Origin: Candidatus Woesearchaeota archaeon
GTDB taxonomy: Archaea > Nanobdellota > Nanobdellia > SCGC-AAA011-G17 > PNOQ01
Assembly (NCBI GenBank): GCA_964471565.1
Contig: CAYYFK010000003.1
Location: 1 to 54,738 of the forward strand
Length of the DNA: 54,738 bases
Reading direction: 5' to 3'
Shown here: positions 1,737 to 54,631 of the stretch, one piece after another
How the letters are laid out: each line of letters opens with the position of its first letter
Numbering within the stretch: the first letter of the stretch is position 1
Position numbers and translations under genes: made by a program
The notes under the pieces: generated by a model
What the model was told of the DNA's origin: nothing
Database searches by the model: none
Seen by the model: only the letters and a program-made list of their open reading frames with translations

Positions 1737-3933
1737 ATGGCTGAAAAATCGACAGAAATTATAGGGAAAATTATGACGCAGCCTGAGAAGATCAGAAATA
1801 TTGCCATCGCCGCACATTACGATTTCAGTTAAGGCTGTTCGTGTGCAGATCGACCATGGTAAGACCACATTTTCTGATAATCTCTTAGCTGGTGCTGGAA
1901 TGCTTTCTGAAGAGCTTGCTGGTGAACAAAGAGCTTTAGACTTTCATGATGATGAATCTGAGAGAGGAATTACTATAGACTCTGCTTCCGTTTCTATGCT
2001 TCACACTGTTGATGATACTGATCACTTAATTAATTTAATTGACACTCCAGGACATGTTGATTTTGGAGGAGATGTTACAAGAGCTATGAGGGCGGTTGAT
2101 GGTGCAGTTGTTTTATGTTGTGCTGTCGAAGGCATTATGCCACAAACTGAGACTGTTTTAAAACAAGCTTTGAGAGAAAGAGTTAAGCCGGTTTTATTTA
2201 TTAATAAAGTTGATAGGTTAATCAAAGAAGTTAAGTTAACTCCTGAAGCTATGCAGCAAAAGTTTGTTGATATCATTACCCATATTAATAAATATATTGA
2301 GCAAATTGCTCCTGAAGAATTTAAGGAAAAATGGAAAGTTAATATTCAGGATGGATCTGTTGCTTTTGGTTCAGCGTTCCATAACTGGGGGATTTCTTTG
2401 CCTTATATGCAAAAGAAAAATATTTCTTTCAAAGATATAATTGATGCTTATGAAAATGAAACTTACAAAGAATTAGCTAAAAAAGCGCCAATTCATGAAG
2501 TTGTTCTAGATATGACTATCAAACATCATCCAAATCCTTTAATTGCACAAAAATATAGAATTCCTAAAATTTGGCATGGGGATATTGAAAGTGTAGAAGG
2601 TAAGGCACTATCTAATTGTGATCCTAAGGGTGGAGTTGGTTTGATTGTTACTAAAATTGTTGTAGATAAACACGCTGGAGAGGTTGCAACTGGTCGTTTG
2701 TTTTCTGGAACTGTTAGACAAGGCGATGAAGTTTATCTTAATATGGCTAAGAAAAAAGTTAGATTACAACAAGTTTCTGTTTACAAAGGTTCACAAAGAA
2801 CTATGATGGAAGAAATCCCGTGCGGAAATATTGTTGGTTTGGTTGGTTTGAGAGATACTTTTGCGGGAGAAACTGTTTCTACAGAGCCCATGACCCCTTT
2901 TGAAGAAATTAAACATATTTTTGAGCCTGTTATTACTAAATCTATTGAAGCTTTGAAGGCTGCTGACTTGTCCAGATTAATTGAAGTTTTAAGACAAGTT
3001 GGAAAAGAAGACCCAAGTATTAAGGTTGAAATTAATGAAGAAACTGGAGAGAATTTAATCTCTGGAATGGGCGAATTACATTTAGAAATTATTGAGAATA
3101 GAATTAAAAATGAAAAAGGTTTGGAAGTTAAGACTTCTCCACCGATTGTTGTTTATAGGGAAACAGTTACTAAACAAGGTACTGAAGAAGAGGGTAAAAG
3201 TCCTAACAAACACAATAAATTCTATATAGTTGTAGAACCTTTGGAAGATAATATTTACGAGGCAATAAAATCTGGAGAATTATCTGAAGGAAGAGTAAAG
3301 AAAAAAGATAGAGTTGTTATAGATAAGTTAGTTGAATTAGGTTTAAATTCAAAAGATTCTCAAAGATATAGGTATTTTTACAAAGGAAATGCTCTTGTTG
3401 ATGATACAAGGGGAATTGTTCATATAGGAGAAGTTATTGAAATGATTATGGATGGTTTTCAACAAGTTATCAATGCAGGTCCATTGGCTAGAGAGCCTTG
3501 TGCTAAGATGAGGGTAAGAATTATGGATATGAAGCTTCATGAAGATGCAATTCATAGAGGTCCTGCTCAAGTTTACCCGGCAATTAGAGAATCTATTAAA
3601 GGCAGTATGGCAACTGCAGGTTCAAGTATCCTGGAACCTATTCAAGTTATGCAATTTGATAGTCCTTCTGAGTTTTTGGGAAATTTAAGTGGTATGATTC
3701 AGAACAAAAGAGGACAATTAATTAATGTTGATCAACAAGGCGAACATATTTCTGTTAAAGCTAAATTGCCTGTGGCTGAAATGTTTGGAATTGCTTCTGA
3801 ATTGAGATCGGTTACTTCTGGTCGTGGTAGTCAGTATTTAGTTGACCAAATGTTTGAAACTTTACCTACTAATTTGAAGGATGATGTTATCAAGAAAATT
3901 AGAAGTCGTAAAGGTTTAGGCGAGAATGAGTGA
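1737..3933 (+). CDS. fusA: Archaeal elongation factor EF-2, join(1737..1817,1849..3933), 721 aa after splicing
   Basis: Exon 1 MAEKSTEIIGKIMTQPEKIRNIAIAAH joins exon 2 IDHGKTTFSDN to restore G1; DTPGHVDF, NKVD and the diphthamide loop DAIHRGPAQV are present. Confidence 0.95.
1818..1848 (+). other. 31-nt BHB-type intron in EF-2 mRNA
   Basis: Central helix GCAC(1812-15)/GTGC(1843-46), 3-nt bulges ATT(1816-18) and AGA(1847-49), inner helix ACGA/TCGT. Cutting after the 2nd nt of each bulge gives exactly the junction that restores AAH-IDHGKT. Confidence 0.9.
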
Positions 3934-8341: not shown

Positions 8342-8481
8342 GCCGGGATCGCATAATCTGGTATTGCACAGAACCTTAAAATGTAATAAATTTAAGGTGT
8401 GTAAGCCTGGAATTTAATTTCAGAAACATGCCAGTTAGCCTGACCCTTCGGGGTGTCTGGGTTCAAATCCCAGTCCCGGCG
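8342..8481 (+). tRNA. tRNA-Ser(GGA) with two introns: 8372-8404 (position 29/30, 33 nt) and 8413-8436 (37/38, 24 nt)
   Basis: Acceptor GCCGGGA/TCCCGGC, G73, long variable arm, TTCAAAT T-loop. Removing both BHB introns gives anticodon arm CAGGC-CTGGAAA-GCCTG; the body is near-identical to tRNA-Ser(GCT) at 34884. Confidence 0.9.
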
Positions 8482-19870: not shown

Positions 19871-20011
19871 TTATTGTCTAAATTTGGAAATTTGTTTTAT
19901 TATAGCTTGATTTATGAAATCTTGCTCATCTTCAAACATCTTTGTGTCTTCAACGATTTTTCTTATGTTTTCTATGAGTTGTTTTGGTAGTTCTATGCTT
20001 TCTATTTCCAA
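19871..20011 (-). CDS. Ribbon-helix-helix-like protein (46 aa, not in ORF track)
   Basis: GGAGG SD then TTG; SIELPKQLIENIRKIVEDTKMFEDEQDFINQAI resembles CopG/Arc. Confidence 0.65.
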   Translation of the reverse strand: MEIESIELPKQLIENIRKIVEDTKMFEDEQDFINQAIIKQISKFRQ

Positions 20012-21275
20012 TTTTTTTCCTCCGTGGTTTTGTCTTTTTTCTTTTATTTATAAAGATTATTATTGTTATTATAAAAACTAATAATATTGCTAAATATAAG
20101 ATTAAGTTAAAGTCTATTATCTCTTTTGGGTGTTCCTCATGTGGTTTTTCTAGAATATTTACTAGTTCACTAGAAGAAATAGTTTCATCTTTGTAGGTTA
20201 GATAACATGATATTACATATGTTCCTGATTTGGTTTCTTGTGGGAATTTTAGATTCCTGTTTATTGAAGTTTGTAAATCAACAGCTAAAGTTTCCTCAAA
20301 AAAATCTAATTTATTTTTTTCAAAGTCCTCTAAAGAGCATTGCAAAAATACATCAACTGGATTTAATGTTCCAAAATTATATAGCACTATATTGAATTCT
20401 ACTTTGTCTTCTATATGGATGTTTTCTGAGTTTTCGTTTAATGTAACTTTTATGTCAAATAATGGTTCTTCTACACAAGCACTGTTTAGGCAATCATTTT
20501 CACATACTTGTACAACTTCCCACTTTTCATTTAGGCAAATTACTAAAATATCTTCCTGGCATGTTATTTCATTGTTATTACACTCATTTGGTGCATCTCC
20601 ATTGCCAGAAGAAGGACCACCATTCTCTGGCTCATCAAGTGGTACTTCTGTGTTTTCTGTCGTAAATGACCATATTTGACTTTCTGTTATATTGTAGGAG
20701 TCATTAACTATTATTTTCCAATAATATACTGTTGAATATTCTAATTGAAATGTATATTCTGTCCCATTTTGATTTTCTGAAACTAAATTCTGTACTTCTT
20801 GATTCGTGTCTAAGTAAATATCGTAAAATAGTTCTTGTTCATCTATATCATATGCTTCCCATGATAAATTTTCTGTAACTGGAATATCTGCCGATGTATT
20901 TTCTGGATAGAGATTTATTGGTTGTTCTGGAGGGGTATTACACACTTCTGGCATAGGAACACATCTCTTTATACATTCTGGAGGAACATCTCCTAAACTA
21001 TACTGTGGCTCCCTTGGGGGACTTAATGGAATTATATCATCTCCTTGTCCCGCATGAGTTGGCTTTTCATCAGAAAAAATATCTCCTATACACTCTCTTC
21101 CTTGTTTCATTTCTCCTATTTGACATCCTGCTTCTAGTCCACAGCTTCCGTTTTCCCAAGGAGTACAATCTCCACATCCTTGAGAAAGCTTTGGTTTTGG
21201 AATTAAGAATGTTATTGATGCTATAATTAAAACTATTAGAATCGATATTATCACCTCTGTTTTTGTTACTTTCAT
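19950..21275 (-). CDS. Membrane-anchored surface protein with Cys-rich and Ig/Fn3-like segments
   Basis: N- and C-terminal TM helices, CTPW..G.C, LSWEAYD, YYWKI, basic tail. Confidence 0.75.
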   Translation of the reverse strand: MKVTKTEVIISILIVLIIASITFLIPKPKLSQGCGDCTPWENGSCGLEAGCQIGEMKQGRECIGDIFSDEKPTHAGQGDDIIPLSPPREPQYSLGDVPPECIKRCVPMPEVCNTPPEQPINLYPENTSADIPVTENLSWEAYDIDEQELFYDIYLDTNQEVQNLVSENQNGTEYTFQLEYSTVYYWKIIVNDSYNITESQIWSFTTENTEVPLDEPENGGPSSGNGDAPNECNNNEITCQEDILVICLNEKWEVVQVCENDCLNSACVEEPLFDIKVTLNENSENIHIEDKVEFNIVLYNFGTLNPVDVFLQCSLEDFEKNKLDFFEETLAVDLQTSINRNLKFPQETKSGTYVISCYLTYKDETISSSELVNILEKPHEEHPKEIIDFNLILYLAILLVFIITIIIFINKRKKTKPRRKKIGNRKHRTTKTTHRKHKKNR

Positions 21276-41793: not shown

Positions 41794-41890
41794 GCGAGCG
41801 TAGTTTAGTGGTAGAATTCGACGTTGCCATTGATAAATTTATTTATTAAGCAAAAACGTCGTGACCCGGGTTCGACCCCCGGCGCTCGCA
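41794..41890 (+). tRNA. tRNA-Gly(GCC) with a 26-nt intron at 37/38 (41830-41855)
   Basis: GCGAGCG/CGCTCGC, anticodon arm CGACG-TTGCCA|A-CGTCG, BHB central helix TTGC/GCAA. Confidence 0.93.
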
Positions 41891-42769
41891 TATATTTTTT
41901 ATTAATTTGTTTGTTGGTATTCTTCCATGTTTAGACCATATCTTGAATTTTAGATTATTTTTAAAATTACTAAATCCTATCTTATTATAATATTCTACTG
42001 CTTCTTTTCCAAAGAGATACAAACAATAATTATCATTGTTTTTTCCTATCCTTGGGTTATAACCCAAATGTTCCAGTGCTTTTTTTAGTGAATCTATCAA
42101 ACTTATTTGACTATTAAAAAATATTATTTGTAAATTTGTTTTGTGGTGCCTGTATAACCCCCCATCAGTATCAAAGAGTCCTCTAATGCAGGGAATTAAA
42201 AGAGTACTTTCGTGTAATATCATCTCAGGTATTGATGAATTTTTCTTCTTCCCGAGTTTTAGATTAAATTGTTTTTGTATGTAATTCACTATGTCTCTAG
42301 AATATACCCTACATTGCACACCATTTGACTTTTTGAAATAATATATGCTTGAAGTTTTGTCAAATAAAAACTTAATTAGGTTTGGTATGTATTTGGTTAT
42401 ATATCTTAGGTCTATTTTGCCACAAGTGATTATCAATCCATTTTGATTTATATGTCCATCACCTAAATATATGCCAATTAGTTCAGCAAGCTCTGGAGAA
42501 ATAAACTCTGGAATTTTTATATTTGAATTATTTATCGGTCTTTTCTCAGATATATGTTCATCAAAAGCGGTTGGATTAACATTTATTAAATTACATAATT
42601 CTTGAAATATTGATTCTCGCATACTACAATTCTCTTTGTATAAATGATTTACCATGCTTTTTGAGATATTCAATAATCCTGCTAATTCAATCCATTTTAG
42701 TCCTGTTTTTGTTCTTATTACTTCTAAAAATTCTTTCTGTTTTTCTTTTTTGAAAATTATGTATTCCAT
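41846..42769 (-). CDS. Free-standing double-motif LAGLIDADG endonuclease-family protein with N-terminal HTH (307 aa)
   Basis: LAELIGIYLGDG and IRGLFDTDG; ATG 42769 lies 22 nt after the TATA box; the 3' end runs antisense through tRNA-Gly. Confidence 0.85.
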   Translation of the reverse strand: MEYIIFKKEKQKEFLEVIRTKTGLKWIELAGLLNISKSMVNHLYKENCSMRESIFQELCNLINVNPTAFDEHISEKRPINNSNIKIPEFISPELAELIGIYLGDGHINQNGLIITCGKIDLRYITKYIPNLIKFLFDKTSSIYYFKKSNGVQCRVYSRDIVNYIQKQFNLKLGKKKNSSIPEMILHESTLLIPCIRGLFDTDGGLYRHHKTNLQIIFFNSQISLIDSLKKALEHLGYNPRIGKNNDNYCLYLFGKEAVEYYNKIGFSNFKNNLKFKIWSKHGRIPTNKLIKNICERRGSNPGHDVFA

Positions 42770-42791
42770 TGGTGGTTGATGTAAAAATGTG

Positions 42792-42829
42792 TTTATAAAT
42801 TCTGTTTGCGTGCGTGGCAAGGTGACAAG
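42792..42829 (-). promoter_or_regulatory. 21-nt conserved element (42829-42809), 9-nt spacer and TATA box upstream of LAGLIDADG gene 2
   Basis: Minus strand CTTGTCACCTTGCCACGCACG-N9-TTTATAAA; 20/21 identical to 711-731. Confidence 0.8.
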
Positions 42830-47520: not shown

Positions 47521-47597
47521 TGTTGAAAAGCTAATTTCTCAAGTATATAAAATTTATTATGGGAAGTTTTATAAAATATCTTTATCTAAAGGAATGT

Positions 47598-48695
47598 ATG
47601 AAAAAATTAAACCTTGTATTTGTACTGTGCGTTGTTATTTTGCTTCTTACAGGGATTAATTTACTAAATTATTCTGATGAAAATGGATTTATTTTTACTG
47701 GTATGGCTACAGATCCTCCAGGTAATTGTCCAGATCCATGTTTAACAGAAGTTGATGGTTCTCCTTTTGAAGTTCCGGCTGGAGAATGTGGACCTTATTT
47801 GCCACAGTACTGTCCATCTGTAGTTGGAGATCCAAGTGAATGTGGTGTTTTCATAGATGATTGTTCTACGTGTGGTTGTAATGAAGGATTAGATTGTGAT
47901 TTTGGTGGTAGTTGTTATCTACCTGAAGAACCCCCACAAGGAAGTCATACTGAATGTGTTGAACTTCCCGGTGAAGAATTTGATTGTGTAAAATTTCCTG
48001 GAGAAGGAAGTAATGAATGTAGTGTAGATAGTGATTGTTATACTTCTAGCCATATGGTTTGTGTTGGTGGAGATTCTTGTGAAAGTGCTCCTGGCCCAGG
48101 AAGAGATCAATGTGATTTGATTGGTTGTTTTCCAGAGTATTTGAGTAGATGTGATGAATTCACTTGGGGCAATGAATGTCAAATTTCTAATGAGCCTGTT
48201 TATTGCCTTGATGGAGAATTTTTAAATGATTGTCAAATTTGTGGATGTCCTGGAGATTTAATGTGCCAAGAAAGTGGAGAATGTGCTATTCCATTAAGTG
48301 GTGGAGGCGAGGGAGATTTCGAAGAGTTGCTCTATTTATCTAGTGTCTCTCTAGAATTAGAAAAGAATGAATATGTAAAAAGCTTGGTAGAAAATAATCT
48401 AAGGAAAACTTTCGAATTCAAAAAACCTGAAACCCCCATATTAAGATTTGTAAGGCCAACCATTACTAAGATGTCTCTAAATCTGCCAGATAAACCTGCA
48501 ATAGAAAAGGTGGAAACCACTGGAGAAATCCAAAAGAGTCCAGAATTGGGAAAACTAGTTCTTATTCGTGGCTTGAGATTATCTAGAAATGGTATACAAT
48601 TCAGCCCAGGAGAAGTAAAGGAAGAATTTAATATGCTTTTGGGTTTAAAAAACAATCAACCATATATAAAACTTCATTTTCCAGATTTACCATAA
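47598..48695 (+). CDS. Secreted Cys-rich protein
   Basis: Signal/TM, FTGMAT, numerous Cys-rich modules; likely start MKKLNL. Confidence 0.75.
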   Translation: MKKLNLVFVLCVVILLLTGINLLNYSDENGFIFTGMATDPPGNCPDPCLTEVDGSPFEVPAGECGPYLPQYCPSVVGDPSECGVFIDDCSTCGCNEGLDCDFGGSCYLPEEPPQGSHTECVELPGEEFDCVKFPGEGSNECSVDSDCYTSSHMVCVGGDSCESAPGPGRDQCDLIGCFPEYLSRCDEFTWGNECQISNEPVYCLDGEFLNDCQICGCPGDLMCQESGECAIPLSGGGEGDFEELLYLSSVSLELEKNEYVKSLVENNLRKTFEFKKPETPILRFVRPTITKMSLNLPDKPAIEKVETTGEIQKSPELGKLVLIRGLRLSRNGIQFSPGEVKEEFNMLLGLKNNQPYIKLHFPDLP

Positions 48696-48696
48696 A

Positions 48697-49881
48697 ATGT
48701 TAGATATTATTAAAGAAAATAAAAAAGAAAGAAAAGAGTTAGCTAGAAATGTAAAAGAATTTTTAAAAAAAATAAAAAATAAAGATATAAAATTTTTTGT
48801 TGGTGGAAGTTATGCAAAAAACACTTTTTTAGACAGCAACTTAGATGTTGATATATTTGCTAAATTTGATTATAACCAATATAGGTTCAAAGACATTTCT
48901 AAGGAGCTAAAAAAGTTTTTGAAAACTAAATTTAAAAAAGTTGAAATTGTGCATGGATCTAGAGATTACTATCATATTCAAGAAAATGGAATTAGTTTTG
49001 AAATTGTTCCTGTTTTAGATATAAAGAGAAATAATCAAGCGCAGAACATAATGGATTACTCTCCCTTACATGTTAAGTTTGTAAAAAGGAAAACCAATAA
49101 AAAACTACAAAAAGAAATTAAATTATTGAAAATATTTTTAAGAGCTAATGGACTTTATGGTGCGGAATCATATATTCGTGGATTCTCTGGATATGTTTCA
49201 GAGCTTTTGATAGTTTATTATAAAAGTTTTGAAAAATTAGTAAAGAATGCTAAGTTATGGGGGAATGAGGAAATTGTTCATTTTGGAAGAAATAAAGAAA
49301 GGGCCCTTAGTAATTTAAGTAAATCAAAAAAAGTTTCTCCTTTAATAATTATAGATCCTGTTCAGGCAGATAGAAATGCTGCTGCCGCTTTATCTAAGAA
49401 AAACTATGAAAAATTTGTTTCACTATGTAAAGCTTATAACGGCAATAAGAGTTTTTTTGTTGAAAAGAAAGTACTATTAGATAAATTAAAAGGATATACC
49501 ATATTTGAAATAACTCCATTAAAAGGAAAAAAGGATATTATTGGAGCTAAATTATTAAGTTTGTTGGAGAGAATTAAGAAGGAGTTTGAGAGTTATGATT
49601 TCAAAATTGATGATTATGGCTGGAAATTTGAAGATAAGGTTTATTTCTTGTTTAAAGCAGGAAAGTTAACTAAAAAAAAGGTTCACCTTGGTCCAAAACT
49701 AAAGGATAAGAAGAATGTTGCTGCCTTTAAGAAAAAATGGAAAGAAGTTAAATCTTCCAAGGGCAAAGTTTATACCGTTCTTAATAGAAAATATCTTAGT
49801 CTGGATGAATATGGAAAATATCTGATTAAGAAAGATTGGATCAAAGAGAAAGTTAAGAGTGTTAAATTGTTTAAGAATTAA
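48697..49881 (+). CDS. cca: CCA-adding enzyme (archaeal class I)
   Basis: GGSYAKNT...DVDIF, GLYGAE..IRGFSGY..EL, DPVQ..RNAAAA. Confidence 0.9.
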   Translation: MLDIIKENKKERKELARNVKEFLKKIKNKDIKFFVGGSYAKNTFLDSNLDVDIFAKFDYNQYRFKDISKELKKFLKTKFKKVEIVHGSRDYYHIQENGISFEIVPVLDIKRNNQAQNIMDYSPLHVKFVKRKTNKKLQKEIKLLKIFLRANGLYGAESYIRGFSGYVSELLIVYYKSFEKLVKNAKLWGNEEIVHFGRNKERALSNLSKSKKVSPLIIIDPVQADRNAAAALSKKNYEKFVSLCKAYNGNKSFFVEKKVLLDKLKGYTIFEITPLKGKKDIIGAKLLSLLERIKKEFESYDFKIDDYGWKFEDKVYFLFKAGKLTKKKVHLGPKLKDKKNVAAFKKKWKEVKSSKGKVYTVLNRKYLSLDEYGKYLIKKDWIKEKVKSVKLFKN

Positions 49882-49931
49882 TTTTTTTAATAAAACGATA
49901 GATTTTTATACTTATTTTGCCTCCCCGATTT

Positions 49932-50099
49932 ATGGCAGATGGAATCATTAATGAAACTGATCTTGATGTTAAGCTAGAATATATAATTTCTAAAATGTTA
50001 CCTTTGGTAGATTTAAATATTCCTCAGGAAAAGATGGATGAATTTATTCAACAAAGACCATATGAGCTTAGTTCGAGTCCTGACCATATAGATTATTAG
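49932..50099 (+). CDS. Putative RiPP precursor peptide (55 aa)
   Basis: Short acidic peptide with its own TATA box and C-terminal RPYELSSSPDHIDY, directly upstream of rSAM/SPASM. Confidence 0.5.
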   Translation: MADGIINETDLDVKLEYIISKMLPLVDLNIPQEKMDEFIQQRPYELSSSPDHIDY

Positions 50100-50140
50100 T
50101 CTTTATCGTTTTCTAAAAAAGGTGGTTAAATAATAGTAGA

Positions 50141-51250
50141 ATGGAATTGGATGTAACCCTTGTGGCACAGGCGACGGAAAATTGTAATCTTGGTTGTGAT
50201 TATTGTTATTTGGCTAAAAAAAGACAAAAAAGAGATATGAATTTAGATGTTGCAGAGGTCTTGATTAAATCATTTTTAGAACATAATAATCAATTTGCCC
50301 ATTTTACTTGGGCCGGAGGTGAACCTCTTTTAAGAAGCAACAATTTTTGGAGAGAAATTATAAATATTGGCAAGAGTTATAATAAGAAGGATTTAGAATT
50401 ATCCCATTCTATTCAAACAAATGGTCTTTTATTGACAAAAACAAGGCACAAAGAACTAACCGATATGGGATTCAAAATTGGAAGTAGTTTTGATGGTTGT
50501 TTGGAACTTCAAGATTTAAATAGAAAATCAAAGAAAGGGAAGGATGTTGGAATTTCAGTTTTAGAGAATATAACTTCATTAGAAGGGGATGCTGGTCTGA
50601 TTTCTGTTCTGACAAAGAACATGGTAGGTAATGAAGAAAACGTTTATAAAAATTTAAGGAACCTTTCACAAAAAGCTAGAGTAAACTTTTTTGTTCCCTC
50701 TGGAAAAGGCCTAGAGAACTCAGATGAGCTTTTGCCAAGTAAAGAAGAAGCTTATTTATCTATGAAAAAATTTTATGAATTATGGAAGGACGATGAATCA
50801 GATTTTATTTTGAATCCATTTAGTAGTATGATTAGGGGATTATTTTTAGGATGGGTAAAAACATGTGACTTTTCGTCATATGCTTGTTATAGGATACTTG
50901 GTGCAAACCCTGTGGGGGAATTATTTTTATGTTCTAGATCTGCAAATATGCTCGATACAATGATTGGAGACATAAAAAAGACAGATTTGCAAGATACTAT
51001 TGGTTCTGAAAAGCACCAGGTAATATTAGACAGATTTTCTAAGCTAGAAGAAGGCGAATGTGAGGGGTGTGACTATTTGCCTTATTGCTCCGGAGGGTGT
51101 CCAATTGAGGCATTATCTTACTCTGGAAACTTTATGAGTAAAACATATTATTGTGAAACGAGAAAGGGGTTATTTGATATAATCCTGGAAGACTTAAATA
51201 CGGAAAATGGTAGAAATAGATTGCAAGAAAAAGTCGGAATGTTGGAATAA
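50141..51250 (+). CDS. Radical SAM/SPASM-domain protein
   Basis: CNLGCDYC, GGEPLL, QTNG, SFDG; SPASM C..GELFLC..CEGCDYLPYCSGGC..YC. Confidence 0.92.
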   Translation: MELDVTLVAQATENCNLGCDYCYLAKKRQKRDMNLDVAEVLIKSFLEHNNQFAHFTWAGGEPLLRSNNFWREIINIGKSYNKKDLELSHSIQTNGLLLTKTRHKELTDMGFKIGSSFDGCLELQDLNRKSKKGKDVGISVLENITSLEGDAGLISVLTKNMVGNEENVYKNLRNLSQKARVNFFVPSGKGLENSDELLPSKEEAYLSMKKFYELWKDDESDFILNPFSSMIRGLFLGWVKTCDFSSYACYRILGANPVGELFLCSRSANMLDTMIGDIKKTDLQDTIGSEKHQVILDRFSKLEEGECEGCDYLPYCSGGCPIEALSYSGNFMSKTYYCETRKGLFDIILEDLNTENGRNRLQEKVGMLE

Positions 51251-52082
51251 TGTAGATATTGTTCCATTTGATAAATACTCAAAAAATGATAAGTTTTTGA
51301 TATTGGAAAAGGGAAAACCTACTTTTTTTCTAAAGAGGTATAATAAAAATGAATTTAATATCAAATCAATTGCTGAGAGGGAAAGAAATGTTTTGGCTTT
51401 TTTTAATCAAAGTGAACTTCTTAGAACTCCTAGGTTGATTAGGGCAGATGAGGATTATATTATTACTAGATATGAAAGGGACCTCAGTGATGTTAATGTT
51501 TTGGACGCTTTTGATGAAATTGTAGATTTTCATATATCCTCCATGAATTATGATAGTTTTCCTAGTTTTTTTAGAGATCAAGTTTACGCAAATGACCGAA
51601 GAGTAAGGGGCCCAATAAGAGTTAATAAATATAGGGATTTGGTTGAAGTACTTTGGAACCCTGAAGAAATACTTGATTTTATGGCAGATGTTCCTCCCGA
51701 AAGATATAATGCTCTCCCTATAATTTTAACACACGGGGATTTACACAGAGGGAATATTCATAAAAACGAAAGTGGTGAAATTATATTTAATGACTTTGAG
51801 AGATCTTATTTTGATTACCCGACGTGGGATATTGCAAAATCTCTATTGGATTTATCTTATTCAGAGGTTGATTCTTTTATTGATAGATATATTGATGCGG
51901 TTAAAGATTCAATTCCCCATATCTCTGGAGAGAAACTAAGGGAATTAATTATTGGAGATTGCTTATACCGTATATTAACGGATTCTATTTCGGACAGGCA
52001 AACTGATAACTTTAAGGAAGTTGCCGCTAGACATTTGGTAAGGGATCGGGCTTTTTTAGAGAGGTTTGTTTTTCTGAATTAA
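51207..52082 (+). CDS. APH/choline-kinase-like phosphotransferase
   Basis: HGDLHRGNI, FNDFE, WDIAK. Confidence 0.85.
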   Translation: MVEIDCKKKSECWNNVDIVPFDKYSKNDKFLILEKGKPTFFLKRYNKNEFNIKSIAERERNVLAFFNQSELLRTPRLIRADEDYIITRYERDLSDVNVLDAFDEIVDFHISSMNYDSFPSFFRDQVYANDRRVRGPIRVNKYRDLVEVLWNPEEILDFMADVPPERYNALPIILTHGDLHRGNIHKNESGEIIFNDFERSYFDYPTWDIAKSLLDLSYSEVDSFIDRYIDAVKDSIPHISGEKLRELIIGDCLYRILTDSISDRQTDNFKEVAARHLVRDRAFLERFVFLN

Positions 52083-53528
52083 TTTTGCTTTCTTAATATT
52101 TAATTTAGCTGTATTTTTTGATTCTTCTTTTATTTCTGATTCTAAAACCTTTATTTTTTTCTTAAATAGTGGGCAATCCAGAACTAATGATTCAAATTCT
52201 CCGCCTTCTCCGGCAATATTTAGCCCGTTTTTTCTGTTTAGTTTTACCAATTTATCTATATCTTCATTTGTTATTATTTTGTTTAACCATGATTTATCTA
52301 AACCATCTGCTGCTATTGAAGAAAATATTATTTTGAAATTATTTTTTATTATTTCCCTCATAACTTCTTCTTGGTCTTTGTGCCATAATGGGGAAAATAC
52401 TTTTAATTTTAATTCCTTTGCAATCTTTTCTATTCTGTCTCTTTGATATTCTGAGAATAAAGCCCCAGTTATAATTCCTTGAATTTTGTATTTTTGTTTA
52501 GCTTTAATTAGTGCTTTTTCTAAATCTTTTAATTCGTGCTCTTTTTTTCCTGTTGTTTCTTGTAAAATTATTGGAATCTGCATCGCTTTTGCTTGTAATT
52601 CTGCTAAATGGATATTTGGAGTGTGATACATATATGAATCTGGATTTTTTGATTTAATTGTTATTAAGCAAGATATATTATATCCTTTCATTAAGTAGGT
52701 AGAATAACAAGAATCTTTTCCTGAAGAAAATAAAATTCCTAATTTCATAAATTGATTGAGATATTCTGATTTAAATTTTTTTTCTTTTTTTGCAAGCTTT
52801 TCTATTGCTTTATCTGATTTTGATCCGTATTGCGCTGCTTTTTTTGGCCTTAAAGAATATTTTTTTGGAATCCCTTCTTTTATTGCTAAATCCCTTAAAA
52901 TAAATTTATTTATGTTATTTTTTATTTTATATTTTTTTGGTATTTTTATTGAGTACTTCACTAACTCTTTTTTTAGGTATGGTGTTCTTATCTCTAAATT
53001 ATGATATTTTGTTATTAGTATATCCCTTATTAGATCTATTTTGTAGACATTTCTTAATCCGTCTTTTAACTCTTTATTTAGGTTCTTAGATTTTTTATGT
53101 CTTGAATATCCTCCAAAGATTTCATCTGAACCTAGACCGGATAAGACTATTTGTGTTTTATCCTTTTTTGCTAACTCTGATGCGGCATATATTGCCAGCG
53201 CCACAGAAACTTGGATAGGATTTGTGTTTTTTAGCATTGTGATTATTTTTTTTAGATATTTTGGAATCTCTTTTTGATTGATTATTTTATGTTTAAGTTT
53301 TAGATTTAGTTTTTTTGCAATTTCTTTTGAATTCTTTAGGTCTTCTGCATCCTTATCAAATGCGATTGTGTAACATGTAAAGTTGTAGTTTAGTTTTTTT
53401 AAATAATTGGCTAGAACTAGCGAATCTATTCCTCCTGAGAAAAATAGTCCAATTTTCTTATTTTTGGGGATACTTTCAATTGCATCTATTAATAACTTTT
53501 CTACCTGTTTTTGTTGTATTTTGTACAT
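52056..53528 (-). CDS. Asparagine-synthase-like domain fused to diphthine--ammonia ligase (Dph6)
   Basis: Two PP-loops: FSGGIDS (with SGLGSDEIFGGY) and FSSGKDS (with DSYMYH, GEGGEFES). Confidence 0.85.
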   Translation of the reverse strand: MYKIQQKQVEKLLIDAIESIPKNKKIGLFFSGGIDSLVLANYLKKLNYNFTCYTIAFDKDAEDLKNSKEIAKKLNLKLKHKIINQKEIPKYLKKIITMLKNTNPIQVSVALAIYAASELAKKDKTQIVLSGLGSDEIFGGYSRHKKSKNLNKELKDGLRNVYKIDLIRDILITKYHNLEIRTPYLKKELVKYSIKIPKKYKIKNNINKFILRDLAIKEGIPKKYSLRPKKAAQYGSKSDKAIEKLAKKEKKFKSEYLNQFMKLGILFSSGKDSCYSTYLMKGYNISCLITIKSKNPDSYMYHTPNIHLAELQAKAMQIPIILQETTGKKEHELKDLEKALIKAKQKYKIQGIITGALFSEYQRDRIEKIAKELKLKVFSPLWHKDQEEVMREIIKNNFKIIFSSIAADGLDKSWLNKIITNEDIDKLVKLNRKNGLNIAGEGGEFESLVLDCPLFKKKIKVLESEIKEESKNTAKLNIKKAKLIQKNKPL

Positions 53529-53567: not shown

Positions 53568-54631
53568 TATTTTAACCACTACATTTATATTCTATACTCC
53601 ATAATATTGTAAATATTTAACCACTACATAAATTTATATTGATTTAAATATTCTTCGGAACAAAATTTGGAAATTGCTTTTAATTTTCCTCTCTGACTGT
53701 TTTCTAAAGCAGATAAATATTTTCCTCTTTTTTCTACACGTATTGCCAATGGCCCTAGTCCTTTGTTCATTAGTAACCAATTCAATAATAATCTGCCTAC
53801 TCTTCCGTTCCCATCAACAAAAGGATGGATTATTTCAAATTGTGAATGGGACTGGGCCGCTACCTCAAAGTCATCTACTTTTTTATAAGCCTTAGTTATC
53901 CAGTTTAATAACTCTTTCATTCTTTCCTCTACAAATAGGTGGGAGGTTGTCAATGTTTCTCCTATGTAATTCTGTACTTTCTTATATTCGCCTAATGTTT
54001 CTTCATCTTCTATATCTCTGTTTACTAATTTATGTAACTCTAATAAATCTACTTTTTTTGGTAGTTTTTTATAGCTTTTTTCTACATATTGCCAAGCTTT
54101 TAATAGGTTTGTTGCCATATACAATTCCTTTTTTTTATGGCTTTCTGGAGTTATATCTTTGAAAAGATAATTAAATGTGTCTTTTGAAGTCAACGTAGAT
54201 CCTTCTATTGCGTTAGAGTTTGAAATAAATATACTTAGAAATTTTTCTCTTTCTTTTTCCTTGGATATATTATCCAAACTATCTAAATATTTTTTGTGTT
54301 TATCTGATATTTCCCTTATTTTTTTGTGATCTTGGTAAGATAGTTTATCTTTGAATTCCTTTAATATCTGATCTTTTTTTTCATAAGAGAATCTCATAGA
54401 TTCAAACTCTTCTTTTGGAATTGGTCTTTTCTTTCCTATATACTTTATTGTCTTTTGGATTACTTTTTGCTTTTTTCTTATAGAAGTTACTAAGTAAAGA
54501 TATTCGTTCCCATTTATCTTTTTTGTTACTATGTTTACCATAATTATTTTAACCACTACATATTTATAAACTTTTCTATCTATAACTCTTATTTTAATTT
54601 ATATTTTATTTATTTTAACCACTACATTTAT
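53568..54631. repeat. Four direct copies of TTTAACCACTACAT (53571, 53616, 54548, 54614); the outer pair is identical over 21 bp
   Basis: TATTTTAACCACTACATTTAT at 53568-53588 and 54611-54631 bracket the Fic gene. Confidence 0.9.
53624..54541 (-). CDS. Fic-domain protein
   Basis: HPFVDGNGRVGR catalytic motif and SNAIEG inhibitory-type motif; ATG 54541 follows the TATA box at 54563-54570. Confidence 0.92.
   Translation of the reverse strand: MVNIVTKKINGNEYLYLVTSIRKKQKVIQKTIKYIGKKRPIPKEEFESMRFSYEKKDQILKEFKDKLSYQDHKKIREISDKHKKYLDSLDNISKEKEREKFLSIFISNSNAIEGSTLTSKDTFNYLFKDITPESHKKKELYMATNLLKAWQYVEKSYKKLPKKVDLLELHKLVNRDIEDEETLGEYKKVQNYIGETLTTSHLFVEERMKELLNWITKAYKKVDDFEVAAQSHSQFEIIHPFVDGNGRVGRLLLNWLLMNKGLGPLAIRVEKRGKYLSALENSQRGKLKAISKFCSEEYLNQYKFM

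Follow-up and report, generated by a model that had tools for sequence, protein, structure and literature searches.

We analysed a 54,738-nucleotide stretch of DNA from a Candidatus Woesearchaeota archaeon (contig CAYYFK010000003.1; the whole stretch is called the window here) and followed up three adjacent genes at 49932-52082 on the forward strand. They encode a 55-aa peptide, a radical S-adenosylmethionine (rSAM) enzyme with a SPASM region, and a kinase of the aminoglycoside phosphotransferase (APH) fold. It is likely that this cassette is a compact peptide-maturation system of the type that produces ribosomally synthesised peptides that are modified after translation (RiPPs), restricted to DPANN archaea (Woesearchaeota and Pacearchaeota). 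The cassette contains the following features:

49903..49910, + strand: TATA-box-like element TTTTTATA, read from the sequence, about 25 nt 5' of the peptide ATG
49932..50099 (ATG to stop), + strand: precursor-like peptide gene, an open reading frame (ORF) of 55 aa, MADGIINETDLDVKLEYIISKMLPLVDLNIPQEKMDEFIQQRPYELSSSPDHIDY
49971..50003, + strand: conserved leader block KLEYIISKMLP (peptide alignment and 53 sequences)
50055..50096, + strand: conserved core RPYELSSSPDHIDY, the 14 C-terminal residues (column counts over 53 distinct peptides)
50141..51250, + strand: rSAM/SPASM enzyme of 369 aa, similar to anaerobic sulfatase-maturating enzymes (anSMEs) and cyclophane synthases, without a RiPP recognition element (RRE) (Pfam Radical_SAM)
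50183..50206, + strand: CX3CX2C radical SAM cluster motif, C15/C19/C22
50864..51154, + strand: SPASM region with cysteines of the auxiliary cluster I (Aux I) and auxiliary cluster II (Aux II) types (alignment to anSMEcpe)
51207..52082, + strand: APH/choline-kinase-fold kinase of 291 aa (Pfam APH, E 5.5e-12)
51732..51800, + strand: kinase catalytic loop HGDLHRGN (residues 176-183) and metal-binding DFE (196-198)

The peptide stop codon lies 41 nt ahead of the rSAM gene, exactly the first 44 nt of the kinase gene lie inside the rSAM gene, and the whole cassette spans about 2.2 kb. The original prediction had described these three genes, their positions and the 44-nt overlap, and also an APH-like phosphotransferase as the third product; all of this was confirmed. 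The TTTTTATA element is kept at the same distance in the related locus L081, where the upstream region is 82 % identical. As read from the sequence, it suggests an archaeal promoter that would give a leaderless or short-leader mRNA. A scan for sigma-70 promoters and terminators stayed at chance level, and these are bacterial models that are not applicable to an archaeon.

The peptide contains 12 acidic and 4 basic residues and matches no Pfam or NCBIfam model. A profile built from 17 peptides was searched against 5.8 billion proteins and returned 52 clusters, all of 39-74 aa and all unnamed (E down to 3e-17). The family consists of 53 distinct sequences, none of which is embedded in a larger protein, and in sister contigs of the window the 55-aa gene is also called by independent gene-finding programs. 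The peptide ORF is under purifying selection: the ratio of non-synonymous to synonymous change (pN/pS) is 0.18 against L081, an 86 % relative, and that of the rSAM gene is 0.14. Within the 14 core codons the window and L081 differ by five synonymous and no non-synonymous changes.

The peptides are bipartite like RiPP precursors, with a leader block and a core block split by a variable linker. The leader block has the consensus LLExVLxDAKP, in which the proline (Pro24 in the window) is invariant. The core follows the consensus [RK]-P-x-E-L-S-[ST]...[Y/H/W]-x-[D/E] over the 53 peptides. In window numbering Pro43 and Ser47 are invariant, position 42 is Arg or Lys and position 46 is Leu or Met. 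The aromatic position (His52 in the window) is Tyr, His or Trp in 53/53 peptides, and the residue two positions downstream (Asp54) is Asp or Glu in all except one. Two core types occur. Type A, to which the window peptide belongs, reads R-P-Y-E-L-S-S-S-P-D-[Y/H/W]-x-[D/E] followed by an aromatic or aliphatic residue, and type B reads R-P-T-E-L-S-S-G-G-Y-[V/I]-D and is one residue shorter. This single-residue indel, the only one between the types, lies between the RPxELS[ST] and the aromatic-x-[D/E] blocks. Therefore, the two blocks look like separate modification sites, each with a fixed internal spacing. The core also carries two or three consecutive Ser/Thr, and a Ser stands four residues before the aromatic one in 51/53 peptides, giving a loose S-x-[P/A/G/T/S]-x-aromatic pattern. 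The tail beyond the motif is variable (nothing, ITD, WAGDVD, SPGT and others). Cysteine is missing from 43 of the peptides, the window peptide included. Cross-linking at Tyr/His together with phosphorylation of Ser, as initially proposed, would fit this conservation, in which a serine and an aromatic position are invariant and an acidic residue follows at +2.

We found 28 close homologues of the rSAM enzyme, at 38-86 % identity and E < 1e-72; the next matches appear only at 1e-25. This small clade is found in Woesearchaeota and Pacearchaeota only, and the kinase and peptide families are equally small. We compared 25 orthologous loci from genomes and metagenomes and one more locus found through a distant kinase homologue. 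The kinase gene lies immediately 3' of the rSAM gene in every sufficiently long orthologous locus, usually with the same overlapping start. The original prediction had named rSAM-kinase pairs lacking a conserved neighbouring peptide as the finding that would count against it. The comparison showed no such pairs, and the idea survived: peptide, rSAM gene and kinase occur together in 16/16 distinct loci with enough flank, as expected of a small RiPP precursor gene co-conserved beside its modifying enzymes. Where no peptide is seen, the contig ends before it could be reached, except at L097, where the rSAM gene is C-terminally truncated and the kinase and the peptide are also gone. Since the flanking genes vary between loci, the trio travels as a unit.

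The gene order differs between the two groups. In the Woesearchaeota-type loci (L001, L005, L081-L088, L092, L098, L104) the peptide ORF is directly upstream of the rSAM gene. The Pacearchaeota-type loci (L004, L006, L090, L093, L095, L099) have the peptide just downstream of the kinase, in the order rSAM-kinase-[HExxH-motif protein]-peptide. The rSAM frame is interrupted in 2 of the 16 loci, by an in-frame stop in L006 (5968-7080) and by a frameshift in L099 (4458-5604), which is either assembly error or decay. In L001 (4669-5676, -), L084 (4693-5697, -) and L083 (4651-5703, -) a duplicated Lrp/AsnC-like helix-turn-helix regulator lies divergently, directly upstream of the peptide; the window has no such regulator. 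The most divergent member, L104, has an extra 62-aa ORF ahead of the peptide gene (113-301, +) that is extremely Asp-rich (…DLDGDYDVDPDMDVDIDIDIAF). L082 carries, in addition to its cassette, a second divergent rSAM gene (29 % identity) paired with an HExxH gene (1968-3829, -). This pair has neither a kinase nor a recognisable peptide of its own, and a tRNA-Arg adjoins it.

The rSAM enzyme carries the CX3CX2C motif at C15/C19/C22 and eight further cysteines. In the alignment to anSMEcpe, whose cluster ligands were numbered according to PMC5715301, these eight fall on the ligands of both auxiliary clusters: C242, C249, C264 and C320 on Aux I, and C307, C310, C316 and C338 on Aux II. The enzyme is thus anSME-like with a full SPASM cysteine set, as the first reading of the sequence had it. 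That reading also held for the missing N-terminal RRE, since the radical SAM motif begins at residue 15 and leaves no room for one, and for the absence of a sulfatase: no ORF of at least 100 aa in the window matches a PROSITE-style sulfatase signature. Of the four Aux I cysteines, three never vary within the clade, and at least 90 % of its members have the fourth. The CX2CX5C cysteines of Aux II have been lost from the Pacearchaeota-type subclade (alignment columns ~325-345, residues 307-338). In an intermediate group the Aux II region is rearranged, with one Cys fewer and a doubled Cys after YY. The members without Aux II and the intermediate ones are still paired with the same peptide core motif.

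We then compared the enzyme with curated families and solved structures. For all 29 clade members the DynA model was the best NCBIfam match (best E 1e-54) and the anSME model the second, while the GrrM/OscB, YhhB and AmcB models ranked lower, after TIGR04083 and DarE. The window enzyme scored 161.7 bits with DynA (NF041298; cut-off 450), 148.8 with anSME (TIGR03942; cut-off 349.45), 113.8 with NF010321 (cut-off 441) and 122.4 with GrrM/OscB (cut-off 310). None of the 29 members reached a curated NCBIfam cut-off, and the enzyme accordingly falls outside the curated cyclophane-synthase families (GrrM/OscB, YhhB, AmcB, FxsB, XyeB). Searched against the Protein Data Bank (PDB), the clade profile matched anSMEcpe at 5e-49, CteB at 8e-20 and ChlB at 2e-17. 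The AlphaFold2 model had a predicted local distance difference test score (pLDDT) of 93.6, and Foldseek gave template modelling (TM) scores of 0.82 for anSMEcpe, 0.79 for ChlB, 0.76 for CteB and about 0.55 for viperins. The nearest outgroup homologues are mixed, as P0029 and P0032 pass the anSME cut-offs and P0031 fails them.

Two outgroup loci, whose anSME-like rSAM enzymes are below the anSME cut-off and among the nearest relatives outside the clade, contain peptides with repeated aromatic-x-X motifs: L109 (2568-2771) with five WxK motifs, and L007 (5803-5979) with Tyr, His and Trp together with Asp and Glu. L007, from an Oscillospiraceae member and the best outgroup in the genome collection, has its rSAM gene beside this 58-aa aromatic- and acidic-rich peptide. 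P0031 adjoins a peptide ending in RTWDKQWLKNWPKNWNKSWPKRWQQS, with five W-x-K/N motifs. The L109 and L007 loci are probably unclassified triceptide-type clusters. Enzymes of this kind make triceptides, whose defining feature is a link from an aromatic residue to a C-beta on aromatic-X2-X3 motifs (PMC11499958).

Similarity alone cannot separate anSME-type oxidation from cyclophane formation in our sequences. Two features tip the balance towards a cyclophane. The precursor encoded next to the rSAM/SPASM maturase contains an aromatic-X2-X3 motif, and in this motif the aromatic-x-[D/E] is invariant. Moreover, the equivalent of Asp277 of anSMEcpe is missing: the residue after the third Aux I cysteine, which aligns to it, is Ser265 in the window and Ser, Pro, Thr or Val across the family. 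Asp277 has reportedly been proposed, by Goldman et al. (2013), as the catalytic base of anSMEcpe.

The kinase is a member of Pfam APH (PF01636), with 46.4 bits against a gathering threshold of 23.2. Lys43, Glu59, HGDxxxxN (176-183) and DFE (196-198) are kept in all 17 orthologues that were aligned, and K43, D178, N183, D196 and E198 are invariant across 39 members of the kinase family. A kinase profile found only 57 relatives at E <= 1e-3 among 1.84 billion representative proteins, and the most distant relative tested, P0160, again lies within a peptide-rSAM-kinase cassette. A sequence search of the PDB gave nothing significant (best E 0.34). The AlphaFold2 model (pLDDT 94.0) matched LicA/choline, hexosamine, amicoumacin and methylthioribose (MTR) kinases and APHs in Foldseek, with TM scores of 0.57-0.66. 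A precedent for a kinase of this fold in peptide maturation is CaoK, an APH-like enzyme that phosphorylates Ser/Thr residues in the precursor of a RiPP (PMC9486802). We saw no HopA1/OspF-type lyase in the window or in the related loci.

The original prediction had seen no protease. This stands for the window, where we found no homologue of the HExxH protein and no HExxH motif in any ORF of at least 100 aa, but it needs amending for the family, since many relatives encode an HExxH-motif protein in the cassette. This protein, some 240-280 aa long, keeps the motif HE[IL][MIT]H and follows the kinase in L082, L083, L086, L090, L093, L099, L004 and L095. Four examples are located as follows:

L004, 2462-3634: HExxH-motif protein
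L095, 7899-9026: HExxH-motif protein
L090, 6814-7530: HExxH-motif protein
L082, 7945-8685: HExxH-motif protein

In L004, L095, L002 and L003 the protein is extended at its N-terminus by a domain of some 125 aa that contains the motif VLCVCxxGLNRS (CX5RS). By its motif, this domain is reminiscent of phosphatases of the low-molecular-weight protein tyrosine phosphatase (LMW-PTP)/Ssu72 type. Neither the HExxH protein nor the CX5RS domain had a match in Pfam, NCBIfam, PADLOC or the PDB sequences. HExxH enzymes of RiPP clusters can be proteases or oxidative tailoring enzymes (PMC12636437). The closest relatives of the window likewise have no HExxH gene. Because this gene is absent, the window represents the minimal version of the cassette.

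From these data we propose the following pathway. The 55-aa product would be the precursor, with its N-terminal two thirds, including the LLExVLxDAKP-type block, as the recognition leader and RPYELSSSPDHIDY as the modified part. The peptide is very probably the substrate of the rSAM enzyme, the kinase or both. The rSAM enzyme would bind it directly without an RRE, like anSME and ChlB, cleave SAM and abstract a side-chain hydrogen. The auxiliary cluster or clusters would then complete an oxidative (-2 Da) cross-link at the invariant aromatic residue, which is His52 here and Tyr or Trp elsewhere. The likeliest partner would be the beta-carbon of Asp54, which would give a triceptide-like three-residue cyclophane on aromatic-x-Asp/Glu. 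We name the C-beta of the Asp/Glu two residues downstream tentatively, giving it somewhat less than an even chance; oxidation of a Ser or a Ser-to-aromatic link in its place is unlikely. The overlapping and probably translationally coupled kinase would phosphorylate a hydroxyl of the core, with Ser47 in R-P-x-E-L-S as the likeliest site. That the kinase acts on a core Ser at all has, in our estimate, about an even chance. In many relatives the HExxH protein would then probably trim or further process the peptide.

Several observations weigh against this pathway. Judged by sequence, true anSMEs and cyclophane synthases are equally close to the enzyme, and two of its nearest outgroups pass the anSME cut-offs. 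The Ser at -4 is reminiscent of the sulfatase motif S-x-P-x-R, which makes Ser oxidation or a Ser-aromatic link conceivable. The nearest solved structures of the kinase are small-molecule kinases, at the only modest TM scores given above, and the substrate of the kinase could be a processed product or a different molecule. Genes for a protease, an exporter or immunity are absent from the window. Finally, the core is conserved more than the leader, a pattern unusual for antimicrobial RiPPs and closer to that of cofactors derived from peptides. All of the chemistry is what we infer from conservation and gene context.

The alternative that survives best keeps the peptide as substrate and changes the chemistry. 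Here the rSAM enzyme would oxidise a core Ser in the manner of anSME, abstracting the C-beta hydrogen of Ser48, the residue at -4 from the aromatic one, to give a formylglycine/aldehyde or a five-residue Ser-to-aromatic link, and the kinase would modify another Ser. This would agree with anSMEcpe being the best PDB match by both sequence and fold, with the anSME model ranking second for 29/29 members, with true anSMEs among the nearest outgroup, and with the S-x-[P/A/G/T/S]-x-aromatic pattern, which resembles the sulfatase motif. However, the anSME score is far under its cut-off, Ser265 stands at the position of the reported base, and 2 of the 53 peptides have Thr or Asp in place of the candidate Ser. 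This Ser also shifts by one residue against the RPxEL anchor between the two peptide types. We therefore regard anSME-type oxidation as improbable.

A route resembling class V lanthipeptides is highly improbable. In such a route the phosphate added by the kinase would be a leaving group on the way to dehydroalanine, and the rSAM enzyme would act at or beside the dehydrated residue. APH-like kinases do so in class V lanthipeptides (PMC9486802), and the consecutive Ser/Thr of the core would offer suitable sites. The lyase of the HopA1/OspF type that this chemistry needs is, however, seen neither in the window nor in any related locus, and a lanthionine cannot form in the Cys-free peptides. The CX5RS motif of some relatives, as a motif alone, hints at phosphate hydrolysis over elimination.

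There is a very remote chance that the enzyme is an ordinary anSME for a sulfatase encoded elsewhere, with the small ORF and the kinase as unrelated neighbours. It would explain the general anSME similarity, but not the scores below the curated anSME cut-offs, the window without a sulfatase signature, the loss of Asp277, or a peptide and a kinase that stay linked to the rSAM gene across genomes with otherwise different flanks, in three equally small families. Least credible of all is an antiviral pair of a viperin and a kinase with pVip-like nucleotide modification: there are weak PADLOC matches to pVip models, 'viperins associated with kinases' among them (E values of 2e-15 and 8e-14), and a Fic/SoFic-like gene nearby, but only the generic core of radical SAM enzymes, at residues 10-180, is matched, the SPASM region is complete, the viperin TM score is far below that of anSMEcpe, the kinase has an APH and not a nucleotide kinase fold, and the conserved peptide would be left unexplained.

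Two further assignments were rejected. Thioether chemistry of the sactipeptide or ranthipeptide kind was excluded, since most of the peptides, as counted above, have no Cys. Membership in the PQQ (pyrroloquinoline quinone) or mycofactocin pathways was set aside because there is no PqqD/MftB RRE partner and the motif is different.

The window as a whole belongs to an AT-rich (~30 % GC), anaerobic archaeon. Its nearest homologues carry the label Candidatus Woesearchaeota, and it contains tRNAs with introns, an oxidoreductase similar to pyruvate:ferredoxin oxidoreductase (PFOR) and an Fe-hydrogenase-like domain. The cassette is flanked by two genes:

48697-49881, + strand: CCA-adding enzyme (upstream flank)
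52056-53528, - strand: Asn-synthase-like/Dph6 fusion, convergent (downstream flank)

The Asn-synthase-like domain of the fusion is of the PP-loop type, and the 3' end of its gene overlaps that of the kinase by 27 nt. L084 has a stand-alone Dph6 near its cassette, which may be coincidence. Beyond the fusion lies a Fic-domain protein (53624-54556, -), for which PADLOC gives matches to models of candidate defence genes, SoFic and PDC-S04, with E down to 5e-35. The Fic gene is followed by a fragment of a DDE transposase in the sister contig L100, and the window may be variable at this end. Upstream of the CCA-adding enzyme is a Cys-rich protein of 378 aa (47559-48695, +) with an N-terminal hydrophobic segment and no Pfam match, which is 74 % conserved in L081; further Cys-rich ORFs lie at 159-464 and 19950-21275. 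Two tRNA matches are unusually long, 140 nt at 8342-8481 and 97 nt at 41794-41890, and presumably contain introns. ARAGORN calls the second one tRNA-Asn with the anticodon ATT, probably a mis-parse, and a LAGLIDADG-domain ORF (41846-42820, -) overlaps its 3' end on the opposite strand.

As for the biological role, a cofactor or signal seems no less plausible than an antibiotic. The core is almost frozen, exporter and immunity genes are missing, the kinase is obligatory and some clusters have a phosphatase-like domain, all of which would suit a housekeeping molecule or a regulated one that follows the logic of PQQ and mycofactocin. It is a bolder and unlikely proposal that the product is a conserved, cross-linked and phosphorylated peptide-derived small molecule specific to DPANN, acting as a cofactor, in host interaction or in signalling and not as an antibiotic-type RiPP. 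A conserved three- or four-gene cassette in small-genome, biosynthetically poor DPANN archaea would imply a molecule important for their symbiotic lifestyle.

Our searches of the literature on RiPPs or radical SAM enzymes of DPANN, Woesearchaeota and Pacearchaeota, and on radical SAM enzymes with a phosphotransferase and a cyclophane, returned nothing on this system. As far as this literature shows, it would be the first radical-SAM RiPP-like family for DPANN. No described counterpart of the obligatory APH-kinase partner was found there among rSAM RiPPs, and peptide natural products would gain a new pairing of chemistries, cross-link and phosphate, from the union of an anSME/cyclophane-synthase-like enzyme and a dedicated APH-fold kinase. 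Moreover, the loss of Aux II with an unchanged substrate motif is a natural experiment on the purpose of the second auxiliary Fe-S cluster, and a system of this size is small enough for direct testing in E. coli.

Among known systems, the anSMEs (anSMEcpe, PDB 4K36-4K39; TIGR03942) share with the window enzyme the size, the radical SAM core with a full SPASM domain and two auxiliary clusters, and the lack of an RRE. The window enzyme has the three [4Fe-4S] Cys sets that mark this group, and anSMEs also act on a short Ser/Cys-containing peptide motif. It differs in a score below half the cut-off, in Ser for Asp277, in the dedicated 55-aa peptide and kinase in place of a sulfatase, and in belonging to an archaeal clade with members without Aux II.

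The triceptide synthases (ChlB, PDB 9GM3; GrrM/OscB; YhhB; AmcB; HtkB) and DynA are likewise anSME-like, RRE-less rSAM/SPASM enzymes. DynA is the top NCBIfam match and ChlB the second-best fold match. The triceptide synthases join an aromatic residue to the side chain at position +2 from it, and our family has the invariant aromatic-x-[D/E]. In contrast to them, it has a single motif and not repeats, an acidic X3 and an upstream RPxELSS block; it is below every cut-off, has an obligatory APH-type kinase and occurs in DPANN and not in bacteria, and its cross-link is a predicted one. The window peptide is also unrelated to the dynobactin core.

The kinases of class V lanthipeptides and thioamitides (CaoK/LxmK) are similar: these too are enzymes of the APH fold encoded within a RiPP cluster, and their likely target is likewise Ser/Thr in the precursor (PMC9486802). 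This likeness is one of fold and context, and our cassette differs by having no HopA1-like lyase, essentially no core Cys and a radical SAM partner. PQQ (PqqA/PqqE) and mycofactocin (MftA/MftC) resemble it in the small peptide with a strongly conserved core, the rSAM/SPASM enzyme acting at a Tyr-containing C-terminal region and the missing exporter. They differ in that the C-terminus after the motif is variable here, and the mycofactocin rSAM model matched only 21 of the 29 clade members (best E 3e-19). Set against all of these systems, the product of the cassette is most likely a hitherto undescribed kind of peptide, both cross-linked and phosphorylated.

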